IMG/VR virus record: IMGVR_UViG_2061766007_003336 | Source: an uncultured virus (IMG/VR IMGVR_UViG_2061766007_003336) | Lineage: Duplodnaviria; Heunggongvirae; Uroviricota; Caudoviricetes | Reading direction: 5' to 3' (one strand) | Length of the DNA stretch: 64,000 nt | In this document: in pieces, positions 6,154 to 56,519 of the stretch | How the letters are laid out: each line of letters begins with the position of its first letter | Position numbering within the stretch: position 1 is the stretch's first letter | The notes under the pieces: model-generated | What the model was told of the DNA's origin: nothing | Database searches by the model: none | The model's input: only the letters and a program-made list of their open reading frames with translations | Translations under genes and position numbers: made by a program

Positions 6154-6531
6154 TCACTCATCCAGCGGCTTCAGCAGGTTTCTCAGAAACCCGGAAAACT
6201 TGCTGATGCTGTTGATAACATACACGTCACAGTACGGCTGAAGATTGGAGAAGCTTATCGTCTGGTTCTTGCTGAGCTTTCCCGAAGGCTTCTTCAGCTC
6301 AATGTACGCGGTATGCTTATCACAGCATACGTCTTCCCAGTGAACGATCAAATCAGGAAGGACAAGGTCAGTCTCTTTATCGGGTAGTTTGTATGCGTAG
6401 CAGCCGGAAAGGTTCAGCGTATCGAGCACAAGTTTTTCAAAATCACGCTCGGTCCACCCGTCCCATAGTGTCTTGTCGTCCAGACCATCGAACGTATGTA
6501 TGTAAGCTTTTATTTTTTCCGTATCAATCAC
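6154..6531 (-). CDS. VRR-NUC / PD-(D/E)xK nuclease
   Basis: LPDLIV...YIELKKPSGKLSKNQ is the VRR-NUC signature. Confidence 0.75.
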   Translation of the reverse strand: MIDTEKIKAYIHTFDGLDDKTLWDGWTERDFEKLVLDTLNLSGCYAYKLPDKETDLVLPDLIVHWEDVCCDKHTAYIELKKPSGKLSKNQTISFSNLQPYCDVYVINSISKFSGFLRNLLKPLDE

Positions 6532-7664
6532 GATATGTCTCCCGGTTCCCAGTAGTCATAGCCAGTCCCGAGCGCTGCGGTTCTCTGCGCTTCATATTTG
6601 GTAATGAATGCACGCACCGCGCTGCTGATAAGCTGTCGGTTCGATTCAGCGCTTTTGGCCGTTTTGGTAATTGATTTGTAAACTTTCGACTTGTAGTAGC
6701 CGGATATGTTTCCGGTAACTGCCGGGGCATGTGCAGTTTCCGCTCCTGCCAGACTGGAAATTACCGTTCCGCTGGAAGTGGTTGCCGCGGCAAGGCAGCC
6801 GTCAGCCACACCCTGAGAGTCAGTACCCCAGGTCAGTTCAGCTGATCCGAATACGTCCGGATTGGTGTCCTGGATGTCAGTCGGATTAACTATCCGGATA
6901 TAGACACTTTCATCCAGACGTTCAGTACTGCCGTCGGTATTGTCACTCTTAACTGTAAGGAACATATTTTTAGGCAGACTCAGTACTGCTCCGGTTTCGT
7001 CCGTGATCTCTTTAACGAATGCCGTGACGATGAATATTCTGGATGCGTTGGAGGAATCCGACGTAAACGACGTCACCCTGGTCTGCAGCGTAATTCTGAG
7101 CCTGGATCCTTCCAGGACGGCTTCATCATAACCTTCAGGATAGCGTAATGTGTCCATGCTGGTAGTAACCCTGACGCAGTCCCTGTATCCGTCGACCAGG
7201 GCTTTGATGGCTGTGTCGGTAGCGGTTCTGTCTGAGTTGATTCCCGGAACAAGATCCTTAACCACTTTAACAGGGGAGACAAACAGGCCTTCGGGGGAGC
7301 ACTCCGATACGGGTATTTCTGCATCATTCACCTGTTTCCAGGCCTCTTCGTCCCACGGTGCAGGGCCGCCGTCCGGAACCGGAGCCGCCACTGCAAGATC
7401 CTGCCAGTAAAGACTTGAGCCGTTCGGTTTTACCCTGTTGGTCAGATTAAAGTGCTCAGGGCATGCAACACCTATAAAGGTGCTCTCCGACACTTTTACT
7501 GTTTCACCGGCAGTGTCGGGCTTGCGGTACAGAAACAGCGCGTTGTCCATAAACACATTACCGCCTGAAATTCCCATAATGCTGTAAACCGAAGTGATTT
7601 TGTCCTCCCCGGGATTTACGAACGACCTGAATCCCGTTTTATACTGCAGCTTGGCTACCACCAT
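6528..7664 (-). CDS. Hypothetical (possibly structural) protein
   Basis: 378-aa ORF, RBS ggaggaag, own promoter. Confidence 0.75.
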   Translation of the reverse strand: MVVAKLQYKTGFRSFVNPGEDKITSVYSIMGISGGNVFMDNALFLYRKPDTAGETVKVSESTFIGVACPEHFNLTNRVKPNGSSLYWQDLAVAAPVPDGGPAPWDEEAWKQVNDAEIPVSECSPEGLFVSPVKVVKDLVPGINSDRTATDTAIKALVDGYRDCVRVTTSMDTLRYPEGYDEAVLEGSRLRITLQTRVTSFTSDSSNASRIFIVTAFVKEITDETGAVLSLPKNMFLTVKSDNTDGSTERLDESVYIRIVNPTDIQDTNPDVFGSAELTWGTDSQGVADGCLAAATTSSGTVISSLAGAETAHAPAVTGNISGYYKSKVYKSITKTAKSAESNRQLISSAVRAFITKYEAQRTAALGTGYDYWEPGDIS

Positions 7665-44939: not shown

Positions 44940-47900
44940 TTAGTACTTAGGTCCGTTTTCCTTGAAAGGTCTGCCTACCAGCCACGGTGTGACCGGTGAT
45001 GTTGATTCTGCAGGGCTGACCTTGCCCTCGGCAACCGCTTCGGTGATTGTGCGTTTGATATACTTCTGCGCCAGGTTGCTGACCCAGTCATCTTCAAGCA
45101 TACCTGAAGTGTAGAAACTCTTTACTACAGGTTTGACTCTTACGCCTTCGGGGAATACGAGTATCGTTTTCGGACCTTCCTTTTTGAAATAGTCATCGAT
45201 ATCAGACTGCGTCAGTCTGGTCCCTGCCGAATATTCCCCGACTTCTTCTGCCAGACTCATGCCGGGGAGCAGCTCCGACGGTTTGACGGGAACACCTTTC
45301 TTCTTCCCAAGGTCGAGCAGCGTATTGTAAGAGATTGTGTCACCAGGAAGATACGAATCGAAAGCGCTCATTACTTCAACGTAATTTACAGCACCTTTCG
45401 CTATGACGGCCAGAGTCCTGTCGTCCACACTGCCTTCCGTTACCAGCTTGAGATCCTCAATCAGAGCATCACGCCCTGCCTTGACTCCCTTAAGTCTCGT
45501 CATATCCGTGTAAGGAAGCACTCCTTCAGTGAGTTTGTCACCGAGTTTGACCTTGTCCCCTACCTTCACGAGAATGTCACTGTCGGGATGAACGCGGTAT
45601 TTTTTACCTGATTCCATGTATATCATAGCGGGTGCACCCTTTCTGATCTCAATCTCGCTTACGGTGTCGTCCCTTTCTGACAGCGTAGCGACGCCTGCTT
45701 TGCTGGAGTCACTGCTGAATACGTTGGTGAGTCTCTCGAGACCGCCGCCGCCTACATCCCTGGTGATGTCACGTCCGCCGTGCTTGGAGTCAAGCGCTTT
45801 CTGTGAAATAGGCTCATTGGCGCCCTGCGCTGCTCTGAGTCCTACGTTGGTTCCTATATCAAGAAATTTCCAGTAGGAATCGGTGCCGTAACATTTCTGG
45901 CAGATACCTTCTTTGGCCGCGCATGTCTTCGGCGACCTTACAAGGATCTTCCTGTGGGGCAGCTTGCTCTGGTTGTCAGAGGTAATTACTGATCCCTTCT
46001 TGATTCCCGGAACCGTTTCCTGGATGACTTTCCCCAGAACTTCGTCAGAGTTCCAGTCAACTTCAACTCCGGCGTCTGTTCCGCAGTCTTCCATCGTGAT
46101 GACCTCCTTCATTACGTTGTAGGTCATCAGCTTCAGCATTGCACCGGGCGTAGCTACGTTGAGGGCTGTGGCGATAGCGTCCTTCTTGACCTTAATGTTC
46201 TGCTGCCAGAAGTCATACATATTGAGACCTTCACCGTACGAACCTTTTGTCAGAACTGCAGTCTGAACGGGCTTATCCGGATCATAGGAAAGAATTGGAC
46301 TTACTACGATACTCGCCAGCTGCATGTCGGAACCTTTAGCGCCTGACTCGACATTAAGTCTCAGGTCTCCGGGATGGTTCCTTGCGGCATCCTTTGCTTC
46401 GTTCTGTGCTGACTGGAGCAGCTGCGCCCTTTTCTTGAGGTCTTTCTCGTTTTCGATAGCTCGGGAGTACTTATTCAGAATTTTGTCCCTCTCCTTCGTC
46501 ATCGGCTTAATGTCCTCGACACCTACCGTGCTTCCTATCTCTGTAGCATACTTCGTTCCGAGATGCTGTATCTTGTCGTAGATCTCAGTGATCCTGTCAG
46601 GGGCATTCCTCGCTGCGGTAGCAAACATCTTCTTTGCCGCCTTCTTGTCGCAGGGAACAGGAACATCAGCTGCTCCTTTAAGGATAGCGTTCATATCGGC
46701 CCTGAACTTTTTCGGATCCTTCTTCGACATCTGGTAAAGACCGAGAATGGTTTCGGAAAGGAACCCTATCGACAATCCGCCTATCTTAACGTCGTTGAAC
46801 ACATTCTTTGACAGAAGCATTTTATCCAGTGATCTTGATACTTTGGCATTCGACGGAACGTGGATCTGGATCGCATCGCCGTCGAAGTCTGCGTTCAAAG
46901 GCTGGGTAGCGGTCAGATTAAGATGAATACTGGTGTCAGGAATGATCTTCGGATGTGCTGCAAGCATACCGAATCTGTGCAGTGTGGGCGCACGGTTATA
47001 CAGCACGTTGGTCTCTGCCGTAACATCCTCAAGCGCCTTCCTTGCCTGAGGCGTATGTTCGAGCATCATCTGCGAAGCTTCAAGCGGCGGTACACCGATC
47101 TGCTTGAGCTTGTTCATCACGTGAGGTTCGAACATCTTCCATGCCATAACCTCGGGAATGCCTATCTCGTCCATTGACAGACTTGCATCCGCAACAATTC
47201 TGGCACGGCCGGACAGATCCTGGTTCTTCTTAACCAGTGTACTCTGTATGTAGCCGTTCTTCGGCGAACCCACACCGCTGAGATAGGGAAGGACTCCCCG
47301 TGAACCTTTCTTTCTAAGCTGAATATTTGCCGTTTCTTCTGTGCCTACCAGCGCACCGACGTTGTTGAGCAGCACTTTCTTGGCGTCCGGAGCGAAAGCG
47401 GTGTCCTTCACACTTTTCAGACCTTCATTGGCCAGCATTATATCCTTGTAGAACAGGTTTACATCAGAGACCTGTACGCCTCCGTCCTGGAGTTTGGTGA
47501 TCGGCCGCATGATTGGCGGCGGCACCGGTATTTCCGTAATAATATAATCACTGAGTTTGTCTCCTCTCTTCTGAGTATTCTTAAGGAACCTGAGCTCCTT
47601 GATCTCGTTATTCGACAGGTCATTCTTCTTTGACTTGGCAGTCAGTTCCTTGACCCTGCCGTCGATGTCGAAAGCATCAAGTTCTTTTTTCATCTGCTTC
47701 GTCGTGCTGTTGGCCTGCCACGATTTCATTTCAGCTTCCGATTTTCCGAGAACGAGTCTCAAATGGCCTTCGACCATCGGAGAAATGATCCCGTCCTCAA
47801 GTTTCAGCTTCGACCAGAGTTTTCCGTTCAGGCCGCCGGTGGTGTTGGGGTCAAACAGCCCTTTCTTCATAGGCTCGAGATCTTTTGAGTTAAGAAGTGC

Positions 47901-50900
47901 AGGTGTCTGTATCTCTCTGTGCTGTGCAAGTCTGTCAGTTATTTTGTCGGTAACCGGCATGATTGATATTGACTCATTGTCCTGTGTAACGTAGCCGCCT
48001 GCTGCTGTCAGCAGACCTTTCGTCTGCTCCCAGGTTCCCGAGGTGGTCTTTGTCGGAACAGGAATGCCCATTTCCATGCCTTTCCAGTACTCATCATTTT
48101 TCTGGGCCTTGATGTTTCCTGCGTCGGTCAGGAACGCTCTGGCATTGTGGGCTACCAGCGCCCCGAACTCTGCAGCACCGATACCTTTGGCACCTTCGTG
48201 ACCGCCCTTTGACGGAGTGCCTGCATACGAGTAACTGGGGCCTACGCCTCTGGCAGAAAGATCCTTGTCGCCCTTAAGCAGTTTCATAAAATATGTGTAA
48301 CCTACAGCGATAGGCCGCTCGATGTTCTTTCCGGTCGTCGGATCGAAGAGGATCTCCTTGTCCTTGATACCGTATTTCTGCATCTCTTTAACAGTGAAGT
48401 CGTTCAGGTTATCAGCCGTCGGGTTTTTCGCTACCGGAACCTTGTAATGTTCCTTTTTCTTTCCGGAAGCTACGATCTTTCCAAGCGCATTTTCGTAGAC
48501 CTGGCCGGGATTGATACGTGTCGTTACTACAATCGACGAATGGATTACGTCAATAGGCTGGCCGCTTTCGTCCCTTATCATCTGATCGTCCGGAATGATC
48601 TTGCCTATCGTTCCCTTGTTGCCGTACATACCGGTAAGCTTGTCACCTACGACAGCCCTGTCTTCGGAAACAACCGTCACTGACACAAATCCTTTTTTCG
48701 ACGCAACATCAACAACTTTTCCGTCAGTGACTGTTTCGTACAGCTGTGAGCCGTCGACCAGGTCAACTACGATCTTATTGCTGATCTTGCCGAGCTGGGC
48801 TATTCTGTCGTCAGGTGTTCTTCTTTCTATGATAAGCATGACCGGTTCGTGATATTTCACGGTCTCGCCTTTCTTGATTACGCCGTTTGCGTCATATTTG
48901 TCAAAGTCAACAAGATTCTGGTACTTGCTGCCGAACATGTTCATAAAGCGCTGCTTGTCCAGAATGAAGTTATCGTTGATCTTGGAACTGAACGTATGGT
49001 AATGCAGCGACGTGAGCTTTTCCGCACAGCTCTCGGAAATAACCACGCTGTCCTCAGAGTTCTCACCGTAGTACGGCATGAACGCCAGCTTCAGGTTCTT
49101 GCCGAGCGCGAGTTTGCCGTCGTCGGTGGTGTAGCCGTCCTGTACAACCATCTGTCCCTTTCTGATCTTGTCTCCCGGCTTGACCAGAGGGGTCTGGTTG
49201 ACACCGGTGTTGGTAGCGAACGGCAGATATTCATGGTACTGAATGACCTGTTTCTTCCCGTTTTCGTCCTTCAGCTCAATCTTTCCGTCACCGACTTTTG
49301 TAACGGTACCGCTGTAGGGAGACTCCATAGGAAGAAGCGATTCAAGATCCTTCCTCATTTTTCTGTATGTTGACACCCCCTTGTCGTCAACCGGCTCTAC
49401 CAGAGGAGTTTCTCCGTACTTCAGGGGAACAGCCTGTGTGACCTGGCGAGCCGTCATAAAACTTCTGTTGCCCTGTGTAGCCTGGGGAAAAGGAACAAGC
49501 TGGTTTACCGTATTGAAAAGGCTGGAAGTTCCGTGCGGGAGCTTGTAGTCGTAATGTTCTCCCTTCTTGAGCTTCTGCATCTTTCCCTTGTACATGACGT
49601 ATCTGTTCTTGTCCGAAGCAACCTCAGGAACAAGTACCTTCTTATCATATGTATCGGCAAGCGGGATATTTTTGACTTCGCCGCCGGGAGTCGAAAGCGG
49701 GAGGTAAATTTCTCCTGATTTGTCGATCTTGACATCGTCGGTCATGTTCAGCTGGATACCTACGTTCATGCCCTGAGCCGAAGCGGTAGGATCGATGATG
49801 CCGAAGTATGAGGAGTGAACGCCTCGTTTAGCACGTGACACCGCGTTCACGTCGGAGATACCTCCCATGCCCAGCGGAGAGATCTTTGTACTCGCAACGT
49901 ACATTCCTATCGGATTGTACTGCGGATCAAGCCTGCTCAGATCGGAAGAGTTGACCAGGCTGACGAGATACTTCGAAAAAATATTATTGAAGATTTTGGA
50001 ATACGCATGTCCTAGTTTGATTTTATGTCTTACGCCGTTCGCGATCTCGTTAGTGACTTTCTGAAGTCTGTCCTTGAAAAGCATGTTCGGCGGATAGAGC
50101 TTCTGGTAGTAAAGGTCGTCGGGGTCAATACCTTCATCCTCCCCTGCATTGACTTCGTAGAACTTCTTAAGGATCTCCTTCATAAAGGCCTTGTCAATCT
50201 TCTTGTGTTCATCGTTGAACAGGTACTTCGTAGTCTTGGGATCGACCGCAGTCTGTTCAAAATATTCCTTACAGCCCTTCCTGAGATCTTCAAGCGGGAT
50301 TGTTCTTACGTCCTCCTGCTTGAACTCATAGAGTTTGCCGTAGAGCTTTCTGAAGTTGTTGATCTGGGTCTGCTGTGCATCTACAGCGTCCCAGTGGTCT
50401 TTGGCAAACTGTTCATCAGTACAGTCAACAAGATCTTTTCTGGTAAAACCAAGACTCTCAAGCATGGGTCTGATTGCAACCGATCCGTTACCGATGTTCA
50501 TTACCACCAGGCCGGAAGCATCATCCATTGATAAATCAAAGTTACGTCCCTTGGCAAGGTTGAAATCCGCTACGGCTCCGCCCTGGCCGCCGTTAGTCGT
50601 ATAGACGTAAACCGACGACTTTCTTCTGGGCTGGTTGATCAGGTTGTATTCTGACCCTGTTACCATAAATGTGTTCCTGCCTTCAAGCAGCTGGGGAAGC
50701 TGGCCTATCTGGAGATGCCTTTCAAGTACTTTTTTTCTTCCTCCGTCATACTCCACTACGTCCCCGTAGACCTTGGTCAGAATACTTTTCTGAAAGGTTA
50801 CAGCCTCCTTGATGGCCATGGTCGAGTCTGCAGAGGAGTCTCTTTTAAACTCCACGTTCTCGAACGTAATATACGGTCCGTCGGCCTTCTTGGTCAACGG

Positions 50901-50987
50901 TATCTTCATCTCTTCGATTCCTTCCTTTACGCTCTGCTCCACATCATCGGGCTTGCAGCCCCATCCGACTTTTGAAAGTTCAGGCAT
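44940..50987 (-). CDS. rpoBC: Single-chain fused beta-beta' DNA-directed RNA polymerase (~2015 aa)
   Basis: beta motifs (ISPLGMGG, LALGKN..AFMPY.G.NSEDS, GDKLTG.YGNKG, RINPGQ) then beta' motifs (IPVPPP.MRP, DLSGR, NRAPTLHR, NADFDGD at 46875-46895, EDCGT, RSP.TC....ICQKCYG, AAQ..NEP.SQ); ATG at 50987 after gggag. Confidence 0.95.
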   Translation of the reverse strand: MPELSKVGWGCKPDDVEQSVKEGIEEMKIPLTKKADGPYITFENVEFKRDSSADSTMAIKEAVTFQKSILTKVYGDVVEYDGGRKKVLERHLQIGQLPQLLEGRNTFMVTGSEYNLINQPRRKSSVYVYTTNGGQGGAVADFNLAKGRNFDLSMDDASGLVVMNIGNGSVAIRPMLESLGFTRKDLVDCTDEQFAKDHWDAVDAQQTQINNFRKLYGKLYEFKQEDVRTIPLEDLRKGCKEYFEQTAVDPKTTKYLFNDEHKKIDKAFMKEILKKFYEVNAGEDEGIDPDDLYYQKLYPPNMLFKDRLQKVTNEIANGVRHKIKLGHAYSKIFNNIFSKYLVSLVNSSDLSRLDPQYNPIGMYVASTKISPLGMGGISDVNAVSRAKRGVHSSYFGIIDPTASAQGMNVGIQLNMTDDVKIDKSGEIYLPLSTPGGEVKNIPLADTYDKKVLVPEVASDKNRYVMYKGKMQKLKKGEHYDYKLPHGTSSLFNTVNQLVPFPQATQGNRSFMTARQVTQAVPLKYGETPLVEPVDDKGVSTYRKMRKDLESLLPMESPYSGTVTKVGDGKIELKDENGKKQVIQYHEYLPFATNTGVNQTPLVKPGDKIRKGQMVVQDGYTTDDGKLALGKNLKLAFMPYYGENSEDSVVISESCAEKLTSLHYHTFSSKINDNFILDKQRFMNMFGSKYQNLVDFDKYDANGVIKKGETVKYHEPVMLIIERRTPDDRIAQLGKISNKIVVDLVDGSQLYETVTDGKVVDVASKKGFVSVTVVSEDRAVVGDKLTGMYGNKGTIGKIIPDDQMIRDESGQPIDVIHSSIVVTTRINPGQVYENALGKIVASGKKKEHYKVPVAKNPTADNLNDFTVKEMQKYGIKDKEILFDPTTGKNIERPIAVGYTYFMKLLKGDKDLSARGVGPSYSYAGTPSKGGHEGAKGIGAAEFGALVAHNARAFLTDAGNIKAQKNDEYWKGMEMGIPVPTKTTSGTWEQTKGLLTAAGGYVTQDNESISIMPVTDKITDRLAQHREIQTPALLNSKDLEPMKKGLFDPNTTGGLNGKLWSKLKLEDGIISPMVEGHLRLVLGKSEAEMKSWQANSTTKQMKKELDAFDIDGRVKELTAKSKKNDLSNNEIKELRFLKNTQKRGDKLSDYIITEIPVPPPIMRPITKLQDGGVQVSDVNLFYKDIMLANEGLKSVKDTAFAPDAKKVLLNNVGALVGTEETANIQLRKKGSRGVLPYLSGVGSPKNGYIQSTLVKKNQDLSGRARIVADASLSMDEIGIPEVMAWKMFEPHVMNKLKQIGVPPLEASQMMLEHTPQARKALEDVTAETNVLYNRAPTLHRFGMLAAHPKIIPDTSIHLNLTATQPLNADFDGDAIQIHVPSNAKVSRSLDKMLLSKNVFNDVKIGGLSIGFLSETILGLYQMSKKDPKKFRADMNAILKGAADVPVPCDKKAAKKMFATAARNAPDRITEIYDKIQHLGTKYATEIGSTVGVEDIKPMTKERDKILNKYSRAIENEKDLKKRAQLLQSAQNEAKDAARNHPGDLRLNVESGAKGSDMQLASIVVSPILSYDPDKPVQTAVLTKGSYGEGLNMYDFWQQNIKVKKDAIATALNVATPGAMLKLMTYNVMKEVITMEDCGTDAGVEVDWNSDEVLGKVIQETVPGIKKGSVITSDNQSKLPHRKILVRSPKTCAAKEGICQKCYGTDSYWKFLDIGTNVGLRAAQGANEPISQKALDSKHGGRDITRDVGGGGLERLTNVFSSDSSKAGVATLSERDDTVSEIEIRKGAPAMIYMESGKKYRVHPDSDILVKVGDKVKLGDKLTEGVLPYTDMTRLKGVKAGRDALIEDLKLVTEGSVDDRTLAVIAKGAVNYVEVMSAFDSYLPGDTISYNTLLDLGKKKGVPVKPSELLPGMSLAEEVGEYSAGTRLTQSDIDDYFKKEGPKTILVFPEGVRVKPVVKSFYTSGMLEDDWVSNLAQKYIKRTITEAVAEGKVSPAESTSPVTPWLVGRPFKENGPKY

Positions 50988-51076
50988 AGTAATCTCCCGC
51001 CAACAGTTAACACCCGGCCAATATACTATTAAAAGCAAAAAAAATAAAGAATGCGCTGAGGCGTTTTTCCCGTATG

Positions 51077-51092
51077 AAAATTGACATAAGTA
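51077..51092 (+). promoter_or_regulatory. Plus-strand phage promoter-like motif, copy 5
   Basis: aaaattgacataagta upstream of the NAD cluster. Confidence 0.6.
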
Positions 51093-51153
51093 GGTGAGAC
51101 AGGAGTTTCGGCTGAACCCTGTCAAGTTGATCAACTTAATTTTGGAGGAGAAC

Positions 51154-51990
51154 ATGAAAGCAACATTCTCAGAACTCGTCGCTGCAATCAGAAACGATCT
51201 CGCGGGACGAAAGGCGGTTATAGGAATCTCCGGCGGAAAAGATTCCTCGATAGCAGCTGCGCTCATTGCGCTGGCTATCGGAAAAGAAAACGTCGTCGGC
51301 ATCTCGATGCCGAACGGTGAAGGCAAAGAAGACGAACCTTTCGTTAAGGCTTTGGAGAAATGGTTTGACCGGGAGTTCATCAAGGTCAACATCAAAAGCA
51401 CTTATGAAACGATGCTGGCTCAGATGAAAGGGATCGAGATCCTGGAGGACACCAGGATCAATCTTGCTCCGAGAATCAGGATGGCAATGCTGTTTGCCTA
51501 TGCGCAGAGTATCCCCGGTTCGCGGGTAATAAATACCTGCAACCTGAGCGAGGATATGCTCGGCTACTCGACGTTATTCGGGGATCTGGCCGGCAGCTAT
51601 GCCCCGTTGAAGTATTTTACGGTAAACGAGATCATCTCGGTTCTCGGGGAAACTCTCATCAAAAGCTACGGATTTCCCAGAGAGCTTGTTTACAGAGTTC
51701 CTACGGACGGTCTGTGCGGCAGCACTGATGAAGAGAAACTAGGCTTATCGTACTACGAGCTTGACAGCTTTATCAGGACCGGTAAAACCCTCGGGCCGCA
51801 AGACTGGTTCCTTGAGCGGGATTACGGCTGTTCAAACCTCGATCGTCGTATCGACTTTTTAGCTAAAGTACGATCTAAATACGAGGCCAATAAGTTCAAA
51901 CTCCGGATTGTCAATATACCTGGCCCGTCCATTGACCCGGCACAAGGTAAGAATTTCCTGGTCTACCCTAAGAACGGCGAAACAGAATAA
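51154..51990 (+). CDS. nadE: NH3-dependent NAD+ synthetase
   Basis: VIGISGGKDSS, NLAPRIRM, NTCNLSE...GYST.FGD, PTDGL...TDEEKLG.SY.ELD; ATG at 51154 after ggaggag. Confidence 0.92.
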   Translation: MKATFSELVAAIRNDLAGRKAVIGISGGKDSSIAAALIALAIGKENVVGISMPNGEGKEDEPFVKALEKWFDREFIKVNIKSTYETMLAQMKGIEILEDTRINLAPRIRMAMLFAYAQSIPGSRVINTCNLSEDMLGYSTLFGDLAGSYAPLKYFTVNEIISVLGETLIKSYGFPRELVYRVPTDGLCGSTDEEKLGLSYYELDSFIRTGKTLGPQDWFLERDYGCSNLDRRIDFLAKVRSKYEANKFKLRIVNIPGPSIDPAQGKNFLVYPKNGETE

Positions 51991-52010
51991 AATTTTTAAA
52001 GGAGGAGAAA

Positions 52011-52595
52011 ATGACAACAAAGTATTTGCTCGTCATAGACGGACAAAACGACTTCATCACCGGATCACTCAGAAATGAGGAAGCGATCCGCAAACTTCCT
52101 AACATTCTTAAGAAAGTTAAGGAGACGGATGTTAACGAGACCATGATCATCGCGACCCAGGACACTCACGGCGAGAATTATCTTGAGACGCTTGAGGGGC
52201 AGAAGCTGCCTGTCCCGCATTGTATCTACAGCTCGTGGGGCTGGCAGATCGAGGATGAACTCTACAGACTTTTGACTGAAGTCAAACCGACAGAGATCCG
52301 GAAACCGTTCAAACCGGCCACCGGCGTCGGCATTGTGACCAAGCCGACGTTCGGCAGCCTTGACCTGCTGGAAGGCATCTACACAGAGGTAGAAGATACC
52401 CCGGTAGAATTTGAGATCATAGGGTACTGCACGGATATCTGTGTGATATCAAACGCTCTCCTTCTGAGAGCGAAGTTCCCCAATGCTAAGATAACGGTCG
52501 ACGCATCATGCTGCGCGGGCATAACGCCTGAGCTTCATAAAGCTGCGCTGGCGGTTATGAAAAGCTGTCAGATTGACGTCGTTAACGAAGAATAG
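52011..52595 (+). CDS. pncA: Nicotinamidase (isochorismatase family)
   Basis: LLVIDGQNDF, TQDTH, PHC, KPTFGS, GYCTDICV. Confidence 0.9.
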   Translation: MTTKYLLVIDGQNDFITGSLRNEEAIRKLPNILKKVKETDVNETMIIATQDTHGENYLETLEGQKLPVPHCIYSSWGWQIEDELYRLLTEVKPTEIRKPFKPATGVGIVTKPTFGSLDLLEGIYTEVEDTPVEFEIIGYCTDICVISNALLLRAKFPNAKITVDASCCAGITPELHKAALAVMKSCQIDVVNEE

Positions 52596-52603
52596 GAGGC
52601 GAT

Positions 52604-53419
52604 ATGATAATTATAGACGGCAAACCTTATAAATGGGAGCATTTTCCCAATAACGAAACCAAATTTCCGTTTGTTGATATCCGAACCGATTCACAGATCA
52701 CCTGGCTTTGGGAAAATAACGAGGAGTTCTTCGTTATCCAGATGATCACGAAACACCTTAAGGACCACGACGGGAAGGTCAAACTCGTTGTTCCGTTCTG
52801 TCCCTACGGGCAGCAGGACCGCAAGATGCCTGGACAGCTCTTCAGCTGGAAATACTTTGCGCAACTGGTCAATGACGCAGGCTTCTACAGCGTCGTTATT
52901 GTCGACCCCCACAGCAGAGTTATGACCGCGTCACTCAACCGCAGTTATGCAACGTATCTGGAGCTTGACATGAGTACCCTGTTCCGCAGAGGGTACGATA
53001 TGGTGTTTTACCCTGACAACGGGGCTGCCAAGAAATATAGCGAGATTTACACCGATGTCCCTTACCGTTTCGGCAACAAGAAACGCGACCTGAGCACCGG
53101 AAAGCTCACCGGTTACGAGGTTATTGCCGATAAAAAAGATATCGAGGGCCAGAAAATTCTGATCGTAGACGATATCTGCATGGGCGGAAGCACCTTCAGG
53201 GAAGCTGCGAAAGCGCTCCTTGAGATGGGCGCTGAATGCGTGGGTCTCCAGATCACGCATTTTATGCCCCAGTCAGAAGAGTTCCTGAAGCATTTCAGGG
53301 AATACGGCATCAGCGAGGTTTACACTTACGGCGACGGTATATCCCGTCTGCTCTACGCAAATATGGATGCCGAGGAGTGTAAGTTTATTTCTTTAACGTC
53401 TAGACTGATAGGAGAATAA
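52604..53419 (+). CDS. prs: PRPP-synthetase-like pyrophosphokinase (Adps-like by context)
   Basis: FPNNE, PYGQQDR, DPHS, PDNGA, ILIVDDICMGGSTF. Confidence 0.85.
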   Translation: MIIIDGKPYKWEHFPNNETKFPFVDIRTDSQITWLWENNEEFFVIQMITKHLKDHDGKVKLVVPFCPYGQQDRKMPGQLFSWKYFAQLVNDAGFYSVVIVDPHSRVMTASLNRSYATYLELDMSTLFRRGYDMVFYPDNGAAKKYSEIYTDVPYRFGNKKRDLSTGKLTGYEVIADKKDIEGQKILIVDDICMGGSTFREAAKALLEMGAECVGLQITHFMPQSEEFLKHFREYGISEVYTYGDGISRLLYANMDAEECKFISLTSRLIGE

Positions 53420-53420
53420 T

Positions 53421-55226
53421 ATGAGTAGACCATGCACACTTTTGAAGACAGACTTCTACAAGCTCTGTCACCTGAATATGTACGACAAGCGTGTCGTACG
53501 TATGACGTCCTATCTGACCCCCAGAGGGTCGAGATTTCCTGAACAGAACTGGGTGATGATGTTCGGACTGCAGATGTTTGTACACAGATATCTGCTCAAG
53601 GACTTTGACAACAACTTCTTCTCACTCCCGTGGGAAGAAATCGAGGAGCAGTACAAAACGGTTCTTGAGAAATCGCTCCTCTATTCCGAAAGGGAATACA
53701 GTCAGACTCTCGAGAAGGTAAAGGCGCTTCACGACCTCGGATATCTGCCGGTAAAGGTCAGGGGTCTCCCTGAAGGCAAAAAGGTTCCTGTAGGCGTTCC
53801 CTGCGTTGAGATCAGTGTTACAGACGACCGTTTCGCCTGGGTAGGCCAGGCAGTCGAATGTCTTCTTTCCTGCAGTATCTGGCATCCGATGGTGTCGGCA
53901 ACAGTCGGTTACCGTTACCGCGAGCTTGCGCATGAGTTCGCGAAAAAGTCTTCGGACAAGTCGGACGGAACGATGTCGATGTGTGACTTCTCGCTTAGAG
54001 GTCAGGAGAGTATGGAATCAGCGGTCGCCAGCAGTGCAGGCTGGCTGGCATCGATGAAGAACAGCTCTACCGTTCCGGCAAGGGCACTCATAGAAGAGTG
54101 CTATCCGGCAACGGACAAGGACAAACTTCAGGTCTACGGTCTTACTTCGACAGAGCATTCCGTTATGACAACGGACTTCGCCATCAACGGCGATGAACGT
54201 GAGACCTACCGCAGACTCCTTACAGAGGTCTATCCGAACACCAGTTTCGCGGCTGTATGCGACAGCTACGACTACTGGCGCGTACTTACCGAGATACTTC
54301 CGTCGCTCCGACCTGAAATCGAGGCGCACAAAGGCTTCATAGGAGTACGTCACGACTCGGCTGAACCTGTAGAGGCACTCTGCGGCATTCCCCAGATCGT
54401 AATAGAACGCCCAGCAGCGCCGGATCCGAAAGGCGACTATAAGGACCTTTACGAGAAAGCGATCTCAGCATGCGGCGACTGTTTCGCCGAATACCAGGGA
54501 TCCGGTCAGAAGTTCGGTGAAGAGTTCAAGGTCTTCATCATCCTTACCGACAAGGAACATCCATACCCGAACCTCGGCAACCAGTATCTCGGCAAGATCG
54601 TTACAGGCAAATACGCTGTCGACAGATCAGACGGAATCTCCTATAAGATCACGAACGTCGAAACCCGTGAACGCACGTGGGAAGAGAAGGGTATGATCGA
54701 AACGGTATGGGAGATCTTCGGAGGAACAATCAACTCCAAAGGCTATCGTGTAAATAACCCGCACGTAAAGGCGGTTTACGGAGATTCTATCACCCTTGAG
54801 CGTGCAAGGAAGATTTTCGAGCGTATGGAAGCCAAAAAGTTCGCTATCGATAATATCAGTCTCGGCGTAGGCAGCTTCTCGATGCAGGCTGTCGAGTGGG
54901 GCGGTAAGCTCTACCCCTTCACAAGGGATACGTTCAGCATTGCCGTCAAATGCACATGGGCACAGCTGGACAACGGCACCAGGATTCCCGTCTATAAGGA
55001 TCCCAAAGGATTCACTGGCAAAAAGAGCCAGAAGGGCCTCTGCCTTGTTACCGAGGATCCTGAAAAAGGCTACGTCTTCACCGACGGTCACCTCGATCCT
55101 GAGCCGCTTGAGGCCGATCCTCATAATGCAATGATCACCTACTTTGCTAACGGATCCGAGGCTGAAGGACCGCAGCGTGACTTCGCTTACGTTCGTGAGA
55201 ACATCAATCAGTATTTCAAAGACTAA
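53421..55226 (+). CDS. nadV: NAMPT-family phosphoribosyltransferase (Namat-like by context)
   Basis: TDFYKLCH, DFSLRG, STEHSVM, DSYD, RHDS, GDSIT, TRDT, KDP...KKSQKG. Confidence 0.88.
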   Translation: MSRPCTLLKTDFYKLCHLNMYDKRVVRMTSYLTPRGSRFPEQNWVMMFGLQMFVHRYLLKDFDNNFFSLPWEEIEEQYKTVLEKSLLYSEREYSQTLEKVKALHDLGYLPVKVRGLPEGKKVPVGVPCVEISVTDDRFAWVGQAVECLLSCSIWHPMVSATVGYRYRELAHEFAKKSSDKSDGTMSMCDFSLRGQESMESAVASSAGWLASMKNSSTVPARALIEECYPATDKDKLQVYGLTSTEHSVMTTDFAINGDERETYRRLLTEVYPNTSFAAVCDSYDYWRVLTEILPSLRPEIEAHKGFIGVRHDSAEPVEALCGIPQIVIERPAAPDPKGDYKDLYEKAISACGDCFAEYQGSGQKFGEEFKVFIILTDKEHPYPNLGNQYLGKIVTGKYAVDRSDGISYKITNVETRERTWEEKGMIETVWEIFGGTINSKGYRVNNPHVKAVYGDSITLERARKIFERMEAKKFAIDNISLGVGSFSMQAVEWGGKLYPFTRDTFSIAVKCTWAQLDNGTRIPVYKDPKGFTGKKSQKGLCLVTEDPEKGYVFTDGHLDPEPLEADPHNAMITYFANGSEAEGPQRDFAYVRENINQYFKD

Positions 55227-55235
55227 CAAGTTAAC

Positions 55236-55261
55236 GGCGGGGCAGCTCGGGCTGCCCTGCC
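55236..55261 (+). terminator. Hairpin after the NAD cluster
   Basis: ggcggggcagc-tcgg-gctgccctgcc; weak U tail. Confidence 0.45.
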
Positions 55262-55279
55262 TTACCTAAAGGAGGAAAC

Positions 55280-55645
55280 ATGAATGAATACTTTCTTTTA
55301 GAATGGCACGCCGATGAGGCATTCCGCCAGCTGAAGCAGCTCTGTAAGGATTTCCCTGCAGAAACATTCCTGTACCACAAAGCGGGATACGATGAGAAAG
55401 ACGTTTCTGAACTGATCCAGTGGGTGGACGAGCATTACTGCAACATCGATCTGTTCCGCTACAAGTATCTCGTGCACATGACCCCTGAGCAGGTAGAGCT
55501 GCTCCGGATCAGACGCAGTGAGTCCGGAGAGAGTATCTACCCTGATCAGGCCGACAACAGCGAAATTGCTGCGGTAATGAGATATCTTGCTATGCTGGGA
55601 GCCTGGAGTGCATGCGTAGCGGGTCGGAGGAGTATCACGACCTGA
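55280..55645 (+). CDS. Hypothetical protein
   Basis: RBS aaggagg. Confidence 0.7.
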   Translation: MNEYFLLEWHADEAFRQLKQLCKDFPAETFLYHKAGYDEKDVSELIQWVDEHYCNIDLFRYKYLVHMTPEQVELLRIRRSESGESIYPDQADNSEIAAVMRYLAMLGAWSACVAGRRSITT

Positions 55646-55763
55646 GCGACTGCCGGCTCCCCGTTATGGTCCTTGATATGTATACTGCAGGGCTCAGCTA
55701 TATTGAAGACCAGTTTGTGAAACAATATCTTCCAGACAATAACGAATAAACAAAGGAGGAGGC

Positions 55764-56519
55764 ATGCGGTTCGGAATCATTTTAGCGCGACTGAGAAAGA
55801 AAAAAGGCTATTCCCAGGACGGTCTGTCCCGCAAGCTCGGTCTCAGTCTCTGTCCACTCAGGCAGTGGGAAAAAGGTGATAGGCTGCCGACGGAAGACAA
55901 TTTTCTGAAGATCCTGAAAGTGTTCGGAAGAAACGAGATGCTGATAGAGGCCTACTATAGGGCCCGCAACTCGGAAGGCGGATCAGGCACACGCGCCTTC
56001 AGAAACCCGCAGGGAGAGTCTTTCGGCAGCAGACTGAGACAGCTGATGACCGAACGTGAGCTCTCTGCCAACTCACTAGCCAGGTATCTTAAGGTGACGA
56101 CCAATATGGTACGGACATGGCTCAGGGACCAGAAACTTCCTTGTGCAGGCAACTTCGACAAGCTCTTTGACCTGCTCGGGGAGGATCTTGTTCTGGTAGA
56201 GCTGTACGTCTCTACACAGAAGTTTCAGCACAGCTGGGCCATGCTGCGCAACAACCAGAAAAAACAGAAGAGGTGTCCAGGACCGAGATCAGCATTCTGT
56301 GACACGCTGAGAAACGAAAGGCTGAAGCTGCACATGTCCCAGGCCGACCTGGGGCATGAGCTCGGGATCAGCAACTCGGCTGTGTCTTTGTGGGAATCGA
56401 AAGGAGTGCTCCCCGATCCGCCTAAATTCGAGCGGCTGGCGGGCATCCTCAATCTGTCTCAGGAGACCCGTGACGAATATGCAAAACTTAAGAAAAAGCG
56501 GTTGAAAGGAGGAGTGTGA
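55764..56519 (+). CDS. Triple XRE helix-turn-helix protein
   Basis: Three repeats of F...LR......SQ..L...LG.S...V..WE....P. Confidence 0.88.
   Translation: MRFGIILARLRKKKGYSQDGLSRKLGLSLCPLRQWEKGDRLPTEDNFLKILKVFGRNEMLIEAYYRARNSEGGSGTRAFRNPQGESFGSRLRQLMTERELSANSLARYLKVTTNMVRTWLRDQKLPCAGNFDKLFDLLGEDLVLVELYVSTQKFQHSWAMLRNNQKKQKRCPGPRSAFCDTLRNERLKLHMSQADLGHELGISNSAVSLWESKGVLPDPPKFERLAGILNLSQETRDEYAKLKKKRLKGGV

Follow-up and report, generated by a model that had tools for sequence, protein, structure and literature searches.

The gene at 53421..55226 (+) in a 64,000-nucleotide stretch of DNA from an uncultured Caudoviricetes virus (IMG/VR record IMGVR_UViG_2061766007_003336; hereafter the window, meaning the whole stretch) encodes a 601-aa Namat-like enzyme of the NAMPT fold, in which the aspartate that binds the amide of nicotinamide has been replaced by a serine, Ser216. 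Loss of this aspartate is confirmed, and the enzyme probably uses nicotinic acid as its pyridine substrate. The gene closes a set of four on one strand, in the order nadE-pncA-adps-like-namat-like, with intergenic gaps of 20, 8 and 1 nt. In the phage pathway NARP1, Adps makes ADP-ribose pyrophosphate (ADPR-PP) from ADP-ribose and Namat joins ADPR-PP to nicotinamide (bioRxiv 10.1101/2024.02.11.579819). We propose that the window enzyme is a nicotinate-type Namat and stands at the centre of a deamidated, four-gene version of NARP1, a reading that, for the chain as a whole, we hold with even confidence.

The first-pass annotation had used a gapless alignment to assign a serine to the position of human NAMPT Asp219, and had described the phospho-accepting histidine of the STEHS motif as intact; all of this was borne out. 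The peptide that it quoted is residues 189-220 of the open reading frame (ORF; nt 53985-54080), and the span that it gave, 53975-54170, encloses the peptide but has its first base out of frame. When the protein was compared with all PDB chains by phmmer, Ser216 (codon TCT, 54066..54068, +) was placed under the Asp of a G-T-D motif: the window sequence 'knSStvpa' pairs with 'tgTDtipa' of 9w5x/9w5w (E 1.3e-88), the same TD motif lies opposite Ser216 in 9ke8 (E 2.1e-78), and Xanthomonas NAMPT 7yqo shows 'lgTDtlsa' opposite this stretch (E 1.6e-42). Human, mouse and rat NAMPT were also matched (E about 1e-37 to 1e-39). No gap separates the DFxxRG motif from Ser216 in the four printed alignments, and human Asp219 can be equated with Ser216 because the spacing is equal (Phe193/Arg196/Asp219 in human NAMPT, PMC3665594; Phe190/Arg193/Ser216 here). 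In Namat this position is Asp215; the 9w5x residue numbers D13, Y15, R40, F189, D215 and A242 agree with the SPbetaL1 Namat numbering in PMC12774641.

The 120 nearest homologues (46-100% identity, mostly ~585 aa) all carry serine at position 216, within the motif N-[SC]-S-T-[VI], and Phe190, Arg193 and the phospho-accepting His246 (codon 54156..54158, +; STEHS, residues 243-247, nt 54147-54161) are invariant among them. Because the family match reaches E 1e-88 and the serine is present in 120/120 of these proteins, its placement is not due to chance.

By sequence and modelled fold, the closest relative of the enzyme is the phage Namat of NARP1, not NAMPT or PncB. Matches to PF04095 (74.9 bits) and PF18127 (30.7 bits) both exceed the Pfam cut-offs, and the PHROGs match is phrog_448 (2e-140). 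With matches accepted up to E 0.01, NCBIfam yielded a single model, the NadV-type NF006629 (370.1 bits, below its cut-off of 405), and none of the PncB type. An AlphaFold model of the 601-aa protein (predicted local distance difference test score, pLDDT, 87.2; predicted template modelling score, pTM, 0.88) overlaid Namat and NAMPT structures with overall template modelling (TM) scores of 0.82-0.91. The top Foldseek matches were Namat crystals (TM 0.91, target-normalised), with human NAMPT at ~0.84. According to their PDB titles, 9w5x/9w5w are Namat in complex with nicotinamide or NAD, and 9ke8 is Haemophilus ducreyi NadV.

Seven residues hold nicotinamide in SPbetaL1 Namat (F189, R192, D215, A242, R306, D13' and Y15'; PMC12774641), and pocket membership was judged from these published contacts. 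Five are kept in the window enzyme according to the phmmer alignment (F190, R193, R310, D11 and Y13), and two are altered: D215 to S216, and A242, a nicotinamide-pocket residue, to S243 (codon 54147..54149, +). These two positions change together. Among 350 unique family sequences, drawn from 397 loci gathered from IMG/VR, JGI/ENA metagenomes, GTDB genomes and GenBank phages, the pairs at positions 216/243 were Ala/Ser (184), Ser/Ser (21), Asp/Ala (137) and Glu/Ala (8), with zero mixed; position 243 is thus Ser in 205/205 Ser/Ala-type and Ala in 145/145 Asp/Glu-type sequences. A realignment of 155 rows, made up of the query, the best 150 of its representatives at the 50%-identity level and four phage proteins, gave Ser243 in 49/51 non-acidic forms and Ala in 102/103 Asp forms. 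Position 216 itself was Asp in 99, Ala in 30, Ser in 20, Val in 1 and Glu in 1 of the query plus these 150 representatives.

Further positions set the Ser/Ala-type sequences apart. Asn214 and His303 are clade-specific, being replaced by Gly and Arg, respectively, in 60/60 Asp/Glu forms, as are Gln195-Glu196 (for Met-Ser), Tyr31 (for Asn/Thr) and Gly240. Phe190, Tyr13, Arg310 and His246 are invariant in 120/120 or 29/29 sequences.

Published work assigns the lost aspartate a direct role in substrate choice. Asp215 of SPbetaL1 Namat hydrogen-bonds nicotinamide, and D215A cuts NAD+ output 8.1-fold (PMC12774641). In human NAMPT, D219S 'switches substrate affinity' and D219A loses activity, results credited to Khan et al. 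2006 (PMC4919578); Asp219 is said to define NAMPT specificity by mutagenesis, again credited to Khan et al. (PMC7096376), and its hydrogen bond with the amide to designate nicotinamide as the substrate (PMC12143786).

The gene neighbourhood separates the same two types. Loci were scored with profiles built from the module's own proteins, and context was counted for unique sequences flanked by 3 kb or more on either side. Around the 140 Ser/Ala-type genes, PncA was found in 134, Adps in 137, NadE in 130 and all three in 126; the corresponding counts for the 110 Asp/Glu-type genes were 0, 107, 0 and 0. The first-pass annotation had proposed asking whether the serine co-occurs with pncA and nadE neighbours across homologues, and it does: PncA or NadE lies near 138/140 Ser/Ala-type and 0/110 Asp/Glu-type genes. 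In clusters dereplicated at 70% identity from the first 183 loci, the same comparison gave 26/31 against 0/60. Gene order varies among loci, so the linkage survives rearrangement: nadE is first in the window module and last in most relatives, a divergent locus (L322) reads PncA-Namat-NadE-Adps, and another (L098) has PncA last.

Two Ser-type proteins are fused to a C-terminal NAD_synthase domain, one of 869 aa from a Bacteroidales bin (L342:6935-9541) and one of 865 aa (P0125), whose matched stretches share 53% identity with the window protein. No such fusion was present in 16 long Asp-type proteins scanned. As separate observations on long family members, a 924-aa Ser-type protein (L339:6980-9751) has a large insert that splits the catalytic domain, with NadE as a separate gene downstream. 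Two proteins of 858 and 810 aa (P0243 and P0249) have a ~330-residue insert immediately before the catalytic TEHS motif, which begins with Cys, ends with Cys-Gly-Asn and looks like an active-site intein; other long Asp-type homologues show the NAPRTase domain in two stretches.

Of 50,697 GenBank phage records, 2014 contain a family member, 45 a NadE homologue and 8 a PncA homologue, the last being all uncultured gut phages plus Phass-1. Phass-1 (OQ749652.1) encodes a nicotinamidase, a Prs-like protein, an Ala-type NAMPT-like protein and a NadE homologue in a row; this published gut phage uses genetic code 15, and its record labels the first three nicotinamidase, ribose-phosphate pyrophosphokinase and nicotinamide phosphoribosyltransferase. 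Many metagenome NadE matches are ~150-aa fragments under table 11, for which recoded stops may be the cause. The Ala-type four-gene module also occurs in genomes of cultured Clostridia (loci L369, L370, L390 and L391), the carriers being Clostridium sp. HCP1S3_C6, Oscillospiraceae bacterium 50-58, Dysosmobacter segnis BX15 and Hominicoprocola fusiformis CLA-AA-H269.

These data make it improbable that the enzyme is an ordinary nicotinamide-using Namat or NAMPT in which Ser216 is tolerated, with PncA and NadE serving an unrelated takeover of the host. Such an enzyme would explain why the catalytic His, the Phe/Tyr stack and Arg310 are intact, and databases as well as the Phass-1 record do label genes of this kind nicotinamide phosphoribosyltransferase. 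However, the two pocket residues switch jointly without exception in the 350 sequences, removal of the aspartate lowers nicotinamide activity in both Namat (PMC12774641) and human NAMPT (PMC4919578), PncA would destroy the supposed substrate, its gene or nadE accompanies the Ser/Ala type and never the Asp/Glu type, and NadE is fused to a Ser-type enzyme in two cases. The further claim of the first-pass annotation, that the serine means nicotinic acid is accepted, fits the fixation of the residue in the clade, the co-variation of Ser243, the PncA and NadE neighbours, the NadE fusions and the published mutants, from which we infer rather than observe the preference.

If the enzyme instead transferred some other base, for instance a further pyridine or an analogue of nicotinamide, the product would be a non-canonical dinucleotide and no NAD+ precursor. 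Remodelling of the pocket at Asn214, His303, Gln195-Glu196 and Tyr31 is consistent with this idea. We nevertheless consider it very improbable, as the conserved partners are exactly those that make nicotinic acid and amidate a nicotinate dinucleotide.

A FastTree phylogeny built from 90 dereplicated sequences unites the Ser and Ala forms in a single clade (support 100, stem 0.51), which is placed among Asp-type Namats linked to Adps and in which the Ser forms are monophyletic. An enlarged tree of 103 rows, to which insert-less representatives and L322 were added, places all 43 Ser/Ala rows on one side of one branch (support 93, one change); two Ser/Ala changes on the first tree were rejected, having come from long-branch placement of Phass-1. 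A search for independent origins of the Ser/Ala type gave none. Ten Ser/Ala forms that lack the clamp insert, used as an aligned seed, fetched only Asp-type loci (75/75), and a scan for independent origins seeded with the protein P0154 found nothing. Another, seeded with P0161, returned Ala-type loci of the main clade (67), 8 loci of Asp type and, as the one divergent Ser-type locus, L322.

The three genes upstream of the Namat-like gene encode recognizable partners. The nadE gene (51094..51990, +) encodes an NH3-type NAD synthetase (PF02540 130.3 bits; TIGR00552 115.3 bits against a cut-off of 63.65) with an SGGKDS PP-loop motif; its ORF opens at GTG 51094, with an alternative ATG start at 51154. 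The pncA-like gene (52011..52595, +) encodes a 194-aa nicotinamidase (PF00857 69.8 bits; phrog_19305 5e-30), to which the NCBIfam PncA model gives only 21.9 bits. Its best solved relatives are the nicotinamidases 1ilw/1im5 (E 1.9e-6), followed by yeast Pnc1 2h0r, and its motifs viDgQnDF, qDtH, pHC and tDiCV align with solved nicotinamidases. We take DxQxDF, DxH, HC and TDxCV to be the catalytic and metal motifs of a nicotinamidase.

The third gene (52604..53419, +) encodes a 271-aa Adps-like protein of the Prs family (phrog_619 2.9e-55). It falls under every NCBIfam Prs cut-off (TIGR01251, for example, 84 against 113 bits), and a profile of the window-type Prs-like clade gave 48-311 bits on Prs-like genes beside Asp-type Namats, including 182 for Felixounavirus wV8. 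Its PP loop reads DDICMGGSTF, with Met where most Adps carry Asp or Ser; most Asp-type loci have DDICDGGxTF. NARP1 has this arrangement too, with a Prs-like gene ahead of a NAMPT-like one (bioRxiv 10.1101/2024.02.11.579819). No plus-strand terminator was found inside the operon in a scan of 50700-55900, where promoter and terminator counts were near the shuffled expectation.

The identity of the ribosyl donor determines what the enzyme would make. A mononucleotide product would have to be adenylylated, and an adenylyltransferase would therefore be needed. None (PF01467) was found among the 55 other window ORFs, and around 30 dereplicated Ser/Ala loci, where 250 neighbouring ORFs were covered with one taken per cluster, there was a single CTP_transf_like match, at locus L005. 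Two complete module-bearing phage genomes, G001 (142 kb, with terminal repeats) and Phass-1, contained none. A CTP_transf_like match in genome G004 was rejected as the module's adenylyltransferase, as it is CoaD and lies 45 kb from the module.

Residues with which Namat clamps the adenine of its donor are also recognizable. Arg38 (codon 53532..53534, +) is the equivalent of the adenine-stacking Arg40 in the Namat clamp loop, as judged from the phmmer alignment and PMC12774641, and this position is Arg in 28/29 dereplicated Ser/Ala-type sequences. The clamp-helix region GSFSMQAVEWGGKLYPFTRD (residues 484-503; 54870..54929, +) has the Namat GSF...TRD frame plus a 9-residue insert. Phe486 and Thr-Arg-Asp 501-503 are conserved among Ser/Ala-type sequences, most of which bear an insert of 9-11 residues here; Tyr498 or Phe500 could serve as the second clamp-helix aromatic. 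A longer insert of ~95 residues (327-421; 54399..54683, +) has no counterpart in the 491-aa SPbetaL1 Namat, and the alignment breaks at 326/422. AlphaFold modelled it as a beta-rich lobe with lower confidence (pLDDT 47-84), and long-form Namats such as that of wV8 (593 aa) align through it in one piece.

The scarcity of adenylyltransferases and the retention of the adenine-stacking clamp residues favour ADPR-PP as the donor. Since the enzyme resembles Namat more closely than NAMPT or nicotinate phosphoribosyltransferase (NAPRT), ADPR-PP is also more likely than phosphoribosyl pyrophosphate (PRPP), and nicotinic acid adenine dinucleotide (NaAD) more likely than nicotinic acid mononucleotide (NaMN). 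On these sequence comparisons, the chance that the donor is ADPR-PP, and hence the product NaAD, is about even, with the PRPP/NaMN route as the main rival.

Genes linked to ADP-ribose accompany many modules. In 43 loci the module encloses Macro-domain genes, most often placed between namat and nadE, and Ala-type modules include Macro-NadE fusions (L083:2604-3824 and L085:9470-10690). Macro genes also stand beside 14 Asp-type loci, which marks Macro as a shared NARP1 accessory. An ADP-ribosylglycohydrolase (ARH) gene lies between adps and namat at one locus (L021), a NADAR gene is present at another module locus (L009), and NrtR regulators flank Gram-positive chromosomal copies of the module. 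ADP-ribose releases NrtR, a regulator of the Nudix type, from DNA (PMC2330246). The slot after the Namat-like gene is filled by a Macro-domain gene in many relatives; in the window, the ORF directly 3' of that gene (55280-55645, +; 121 aa) has no Pfam, NCBIfam or PHROGs match.

A number of observations weigh against the proposed nicotinate- and ADPR-PP-using enzyme. PDB titles show human NAMPT, which has the aspartate, binding nicotinic acid (6ta0 and 6ta2), so the Asp219 residue alone is no absolute switch. The loci were gathered by pattern scans that took each class as seed and are not a random sample. As one branch of the tree has every Ser/Ala form on the same side, the PncA/NadE linkage is one historical event, kept by descent and selection, rather than many replicates, and a test on independent pairs was powerless with only 2 pairs. 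The window is part of a phage genome, and an adenylyltransferase could lie elsewhere in the phage. At L005, the gene for a 187-aa NadM-like nicotinamide-nucleotide adenylyltransferase (6418-6996) sits directly upstream of the Ala-type Namat-like gene, with adps on its other side; no second case of this kind was found in the first 183 loci, and the arrangement fits a mononucleotide intermediate. The clamp-helix signature published for Namat is GSX-phi-X-phi-X-phi-TRD with aromatic residues (PMC12774641), and the 9-residue insert in the window enzyme breaks this signature as written. Finally, the deamidation detour costs extra ATP.

The L005 gene and the altered clamp helix both speak for a phosphoribosyl route, in which the Prs-like protein makes PRPP, the enzyme joins it to nicotinic acid to give NaMN, host NadD converts NaMN to NaAD and phage NadE finishes the pathway. 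In a variant of this scheme, NadE amidates NaMN to nicotinamide mononucleotide (NMN), which an NMN adenylyltransferase then completes. The pocket and neighbour evidence supports nicotinic acid equally under this route, SPbetaL1 Namat also accepts PRPP in vitro (bioRxiv 10.1101/2024.02.11.579819; PMC12774641), and in a published survey of jumbo phages from the gut such sets are interpreted as salvage or Preiss-Handler pathways (PMC11662467). We consider it unlikely, though less so than the other alternatives. It is opposed by the lack of an adenylyltransferase at 29/30 dereplicated module loci and in the two complete phage genomes, and by the presence of NadE, which the host would supply equally well. 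In addition, the Prs-like protein reaches none of the Prs cut-offs and shares a profile with the Adps genes at NARP1 loci, genes that release ADP-ribose (Macro, ARH) lie inside modules, and the fusion of Namat to NadE suggests consecutive steps.

Taken together, the findings are consistent with a model in which ADPR-PP is the donor. PncA would deamidate nicotinamide to nicotinic acid, and the Adps-like enzyme would pyrophosphorylate ADP-ribose to ADPR-PP. The Ser216/Ser243 enzyme would then join nicotinic acid to ADPR-PP to give NaAD, which NadE would amidate to NAD+, possibly with the ammonia freed by PncA. Within the pocket, loss of the aspartate would remove both the hydrogen-bond acceptor for the amide and a charge that repels a carboxylate, and Ser243, perhaps with Asn214, could donate hydrogen bonds to the nicotinate carboxylate. 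The detour might bring gains of its own: diffusible nicotinamide could be trapped as an anion, nicotinic acid could be used where a host nicotinamidase is active, and the ATP-driven NadE step could provide a pull.

Bacteria commonly defend themselves by depleting NAD+, and the known answers of phages are NARP1 to NARP3. We infer from sequence that the module may act against such NAD+-depleting defences. At its centre would be a new reaction, nicotinic acid + ADPR-PP to NaAD + pyrophosphate, in a self-sufficient 'nicotinate NARP1' that dispenses with an adenylyltransferase and starts from two NADase products; we judge this about as plausible as not. The same reading, held no more firmly, has the module widespread in gut and rumen phages and present as an ADP-ribose-regulated (NrtR) operon in Clostridia.

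If true, the model would add an enzyme reaction and a fourth phage route beside NARP1 to NARP3. It would explain the hundreds of gut-phage 'NAMPT' genes that travel with a nicotinamidase and an NAD synthetase, and would correct their annotation as nicotinamide enzymes. A two-residue signature, Asp/Ala versus Ser-or-Ala/Ser, would predict the pyridine substrate of NAMPT-fold enzymes, and the module in cultured gut Clostridia would bear on the recycling of nicotinamide and ADP-ribose by gut microbes. Our literature search found no account of a nicotinate-using Namat or of a step from ADPR-PP to NaAD, and no paper pairing NARP1 with a nicotinamidase. The portions of the NARP1/NARP2 preprint available to us contain zero mentions of nicotinic acid, nicotinamidase, PncA, NadE or Preiss; NARP3 consists of PnuC plus NadR, and the available passages of its paper do not bear on the conversion of ADPR-PP to NaAD.

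Outside the NAD module, the phage is largely uncharted: 6/55 ORFs have a Pfam match at E up to 0.001. The four-gene set is divergent from the gene for a fused RNA polymerase of the multisubunit type, a single ORF of ~2014-2153 aa (44940-50984, -; open to 51401) that joins beta-type (Rpb2 domain 6) and beta-prime-type (Rpb1 domains 1, 2, 3 and 5) parts and carries the NADFDGD motif. Two proteins (157-1485, + and 55764-56519, +) each contain several tandem Cro/C1-type helix-turn-helix domains, the latter lying just downstream of the NAD module.

Gene sets of the same kind are known from gut phages, in the jumbo-phage survey (PMC11662467) and in Phass-1. The survey reports 71 annotated NAMPT genes and docked nicotinamide, and both it and the Phass-1 annotation call the enzyme a nicotinamide phosphoribosyltransferase; the available passages of PMC11662467 are silent on the missing aspartate and on an ADP-ribose route. 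The window enzyme shares its fold and catalytic machinery with NAMPT and NadV (human, Xanthomonas 7yqo, H. ducreyi 9ke8 and the Nampt of phage NARP2), but it lacks the Asp219 equivalent and scores 370 bits against the 405 cut-off of NF006629. An NMN adenylyltransferase, the partner expected under NARP2 logic, was not found among the 55 other ORFs of the window, which is part of the phage genome. Unlike Xanthomonas 7yqo, the only NAMPT aligned in the clamp-helix region, which reads gmggallqkvdrd there, the window enzyme keeps the GSF...TRD frame. With the PncB-type NAPRT of the Preiss-Handler pathway it has in common the predicted pyridine substrate, the partnership with PncA and NadE and the family PF04095; it differs from that enzyme in its NAMPT-type N-terminal domain PF18127 and in its likely donor, ADPR-PP.

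The nearest known system is the Namat of NARP1 (SPbetaL1, Bas63 and FADO), which gives the best match in both sequence (E 1.3e-88) and fold (TM 0.91). As in NARP1, a Prs/Adps-like gene ends 1 nt upstream of the enzyme, which keeps the catalytic His, the Phe190/Tyr13 stack, Arg310, Arg38, Phe486 and Thr-Arg-Asp 501-503. It departs from Namat in carrying Ser in place of both Asp215 and Ala242 and in its 9-residue clamp-helix insert, and the Ser/Ala type travels with PncA and NadE, which are absent from all 110 Asp/Glu-type loci. Its predicted product would accordingly differ in kind, being NaAD rather than NAD+.

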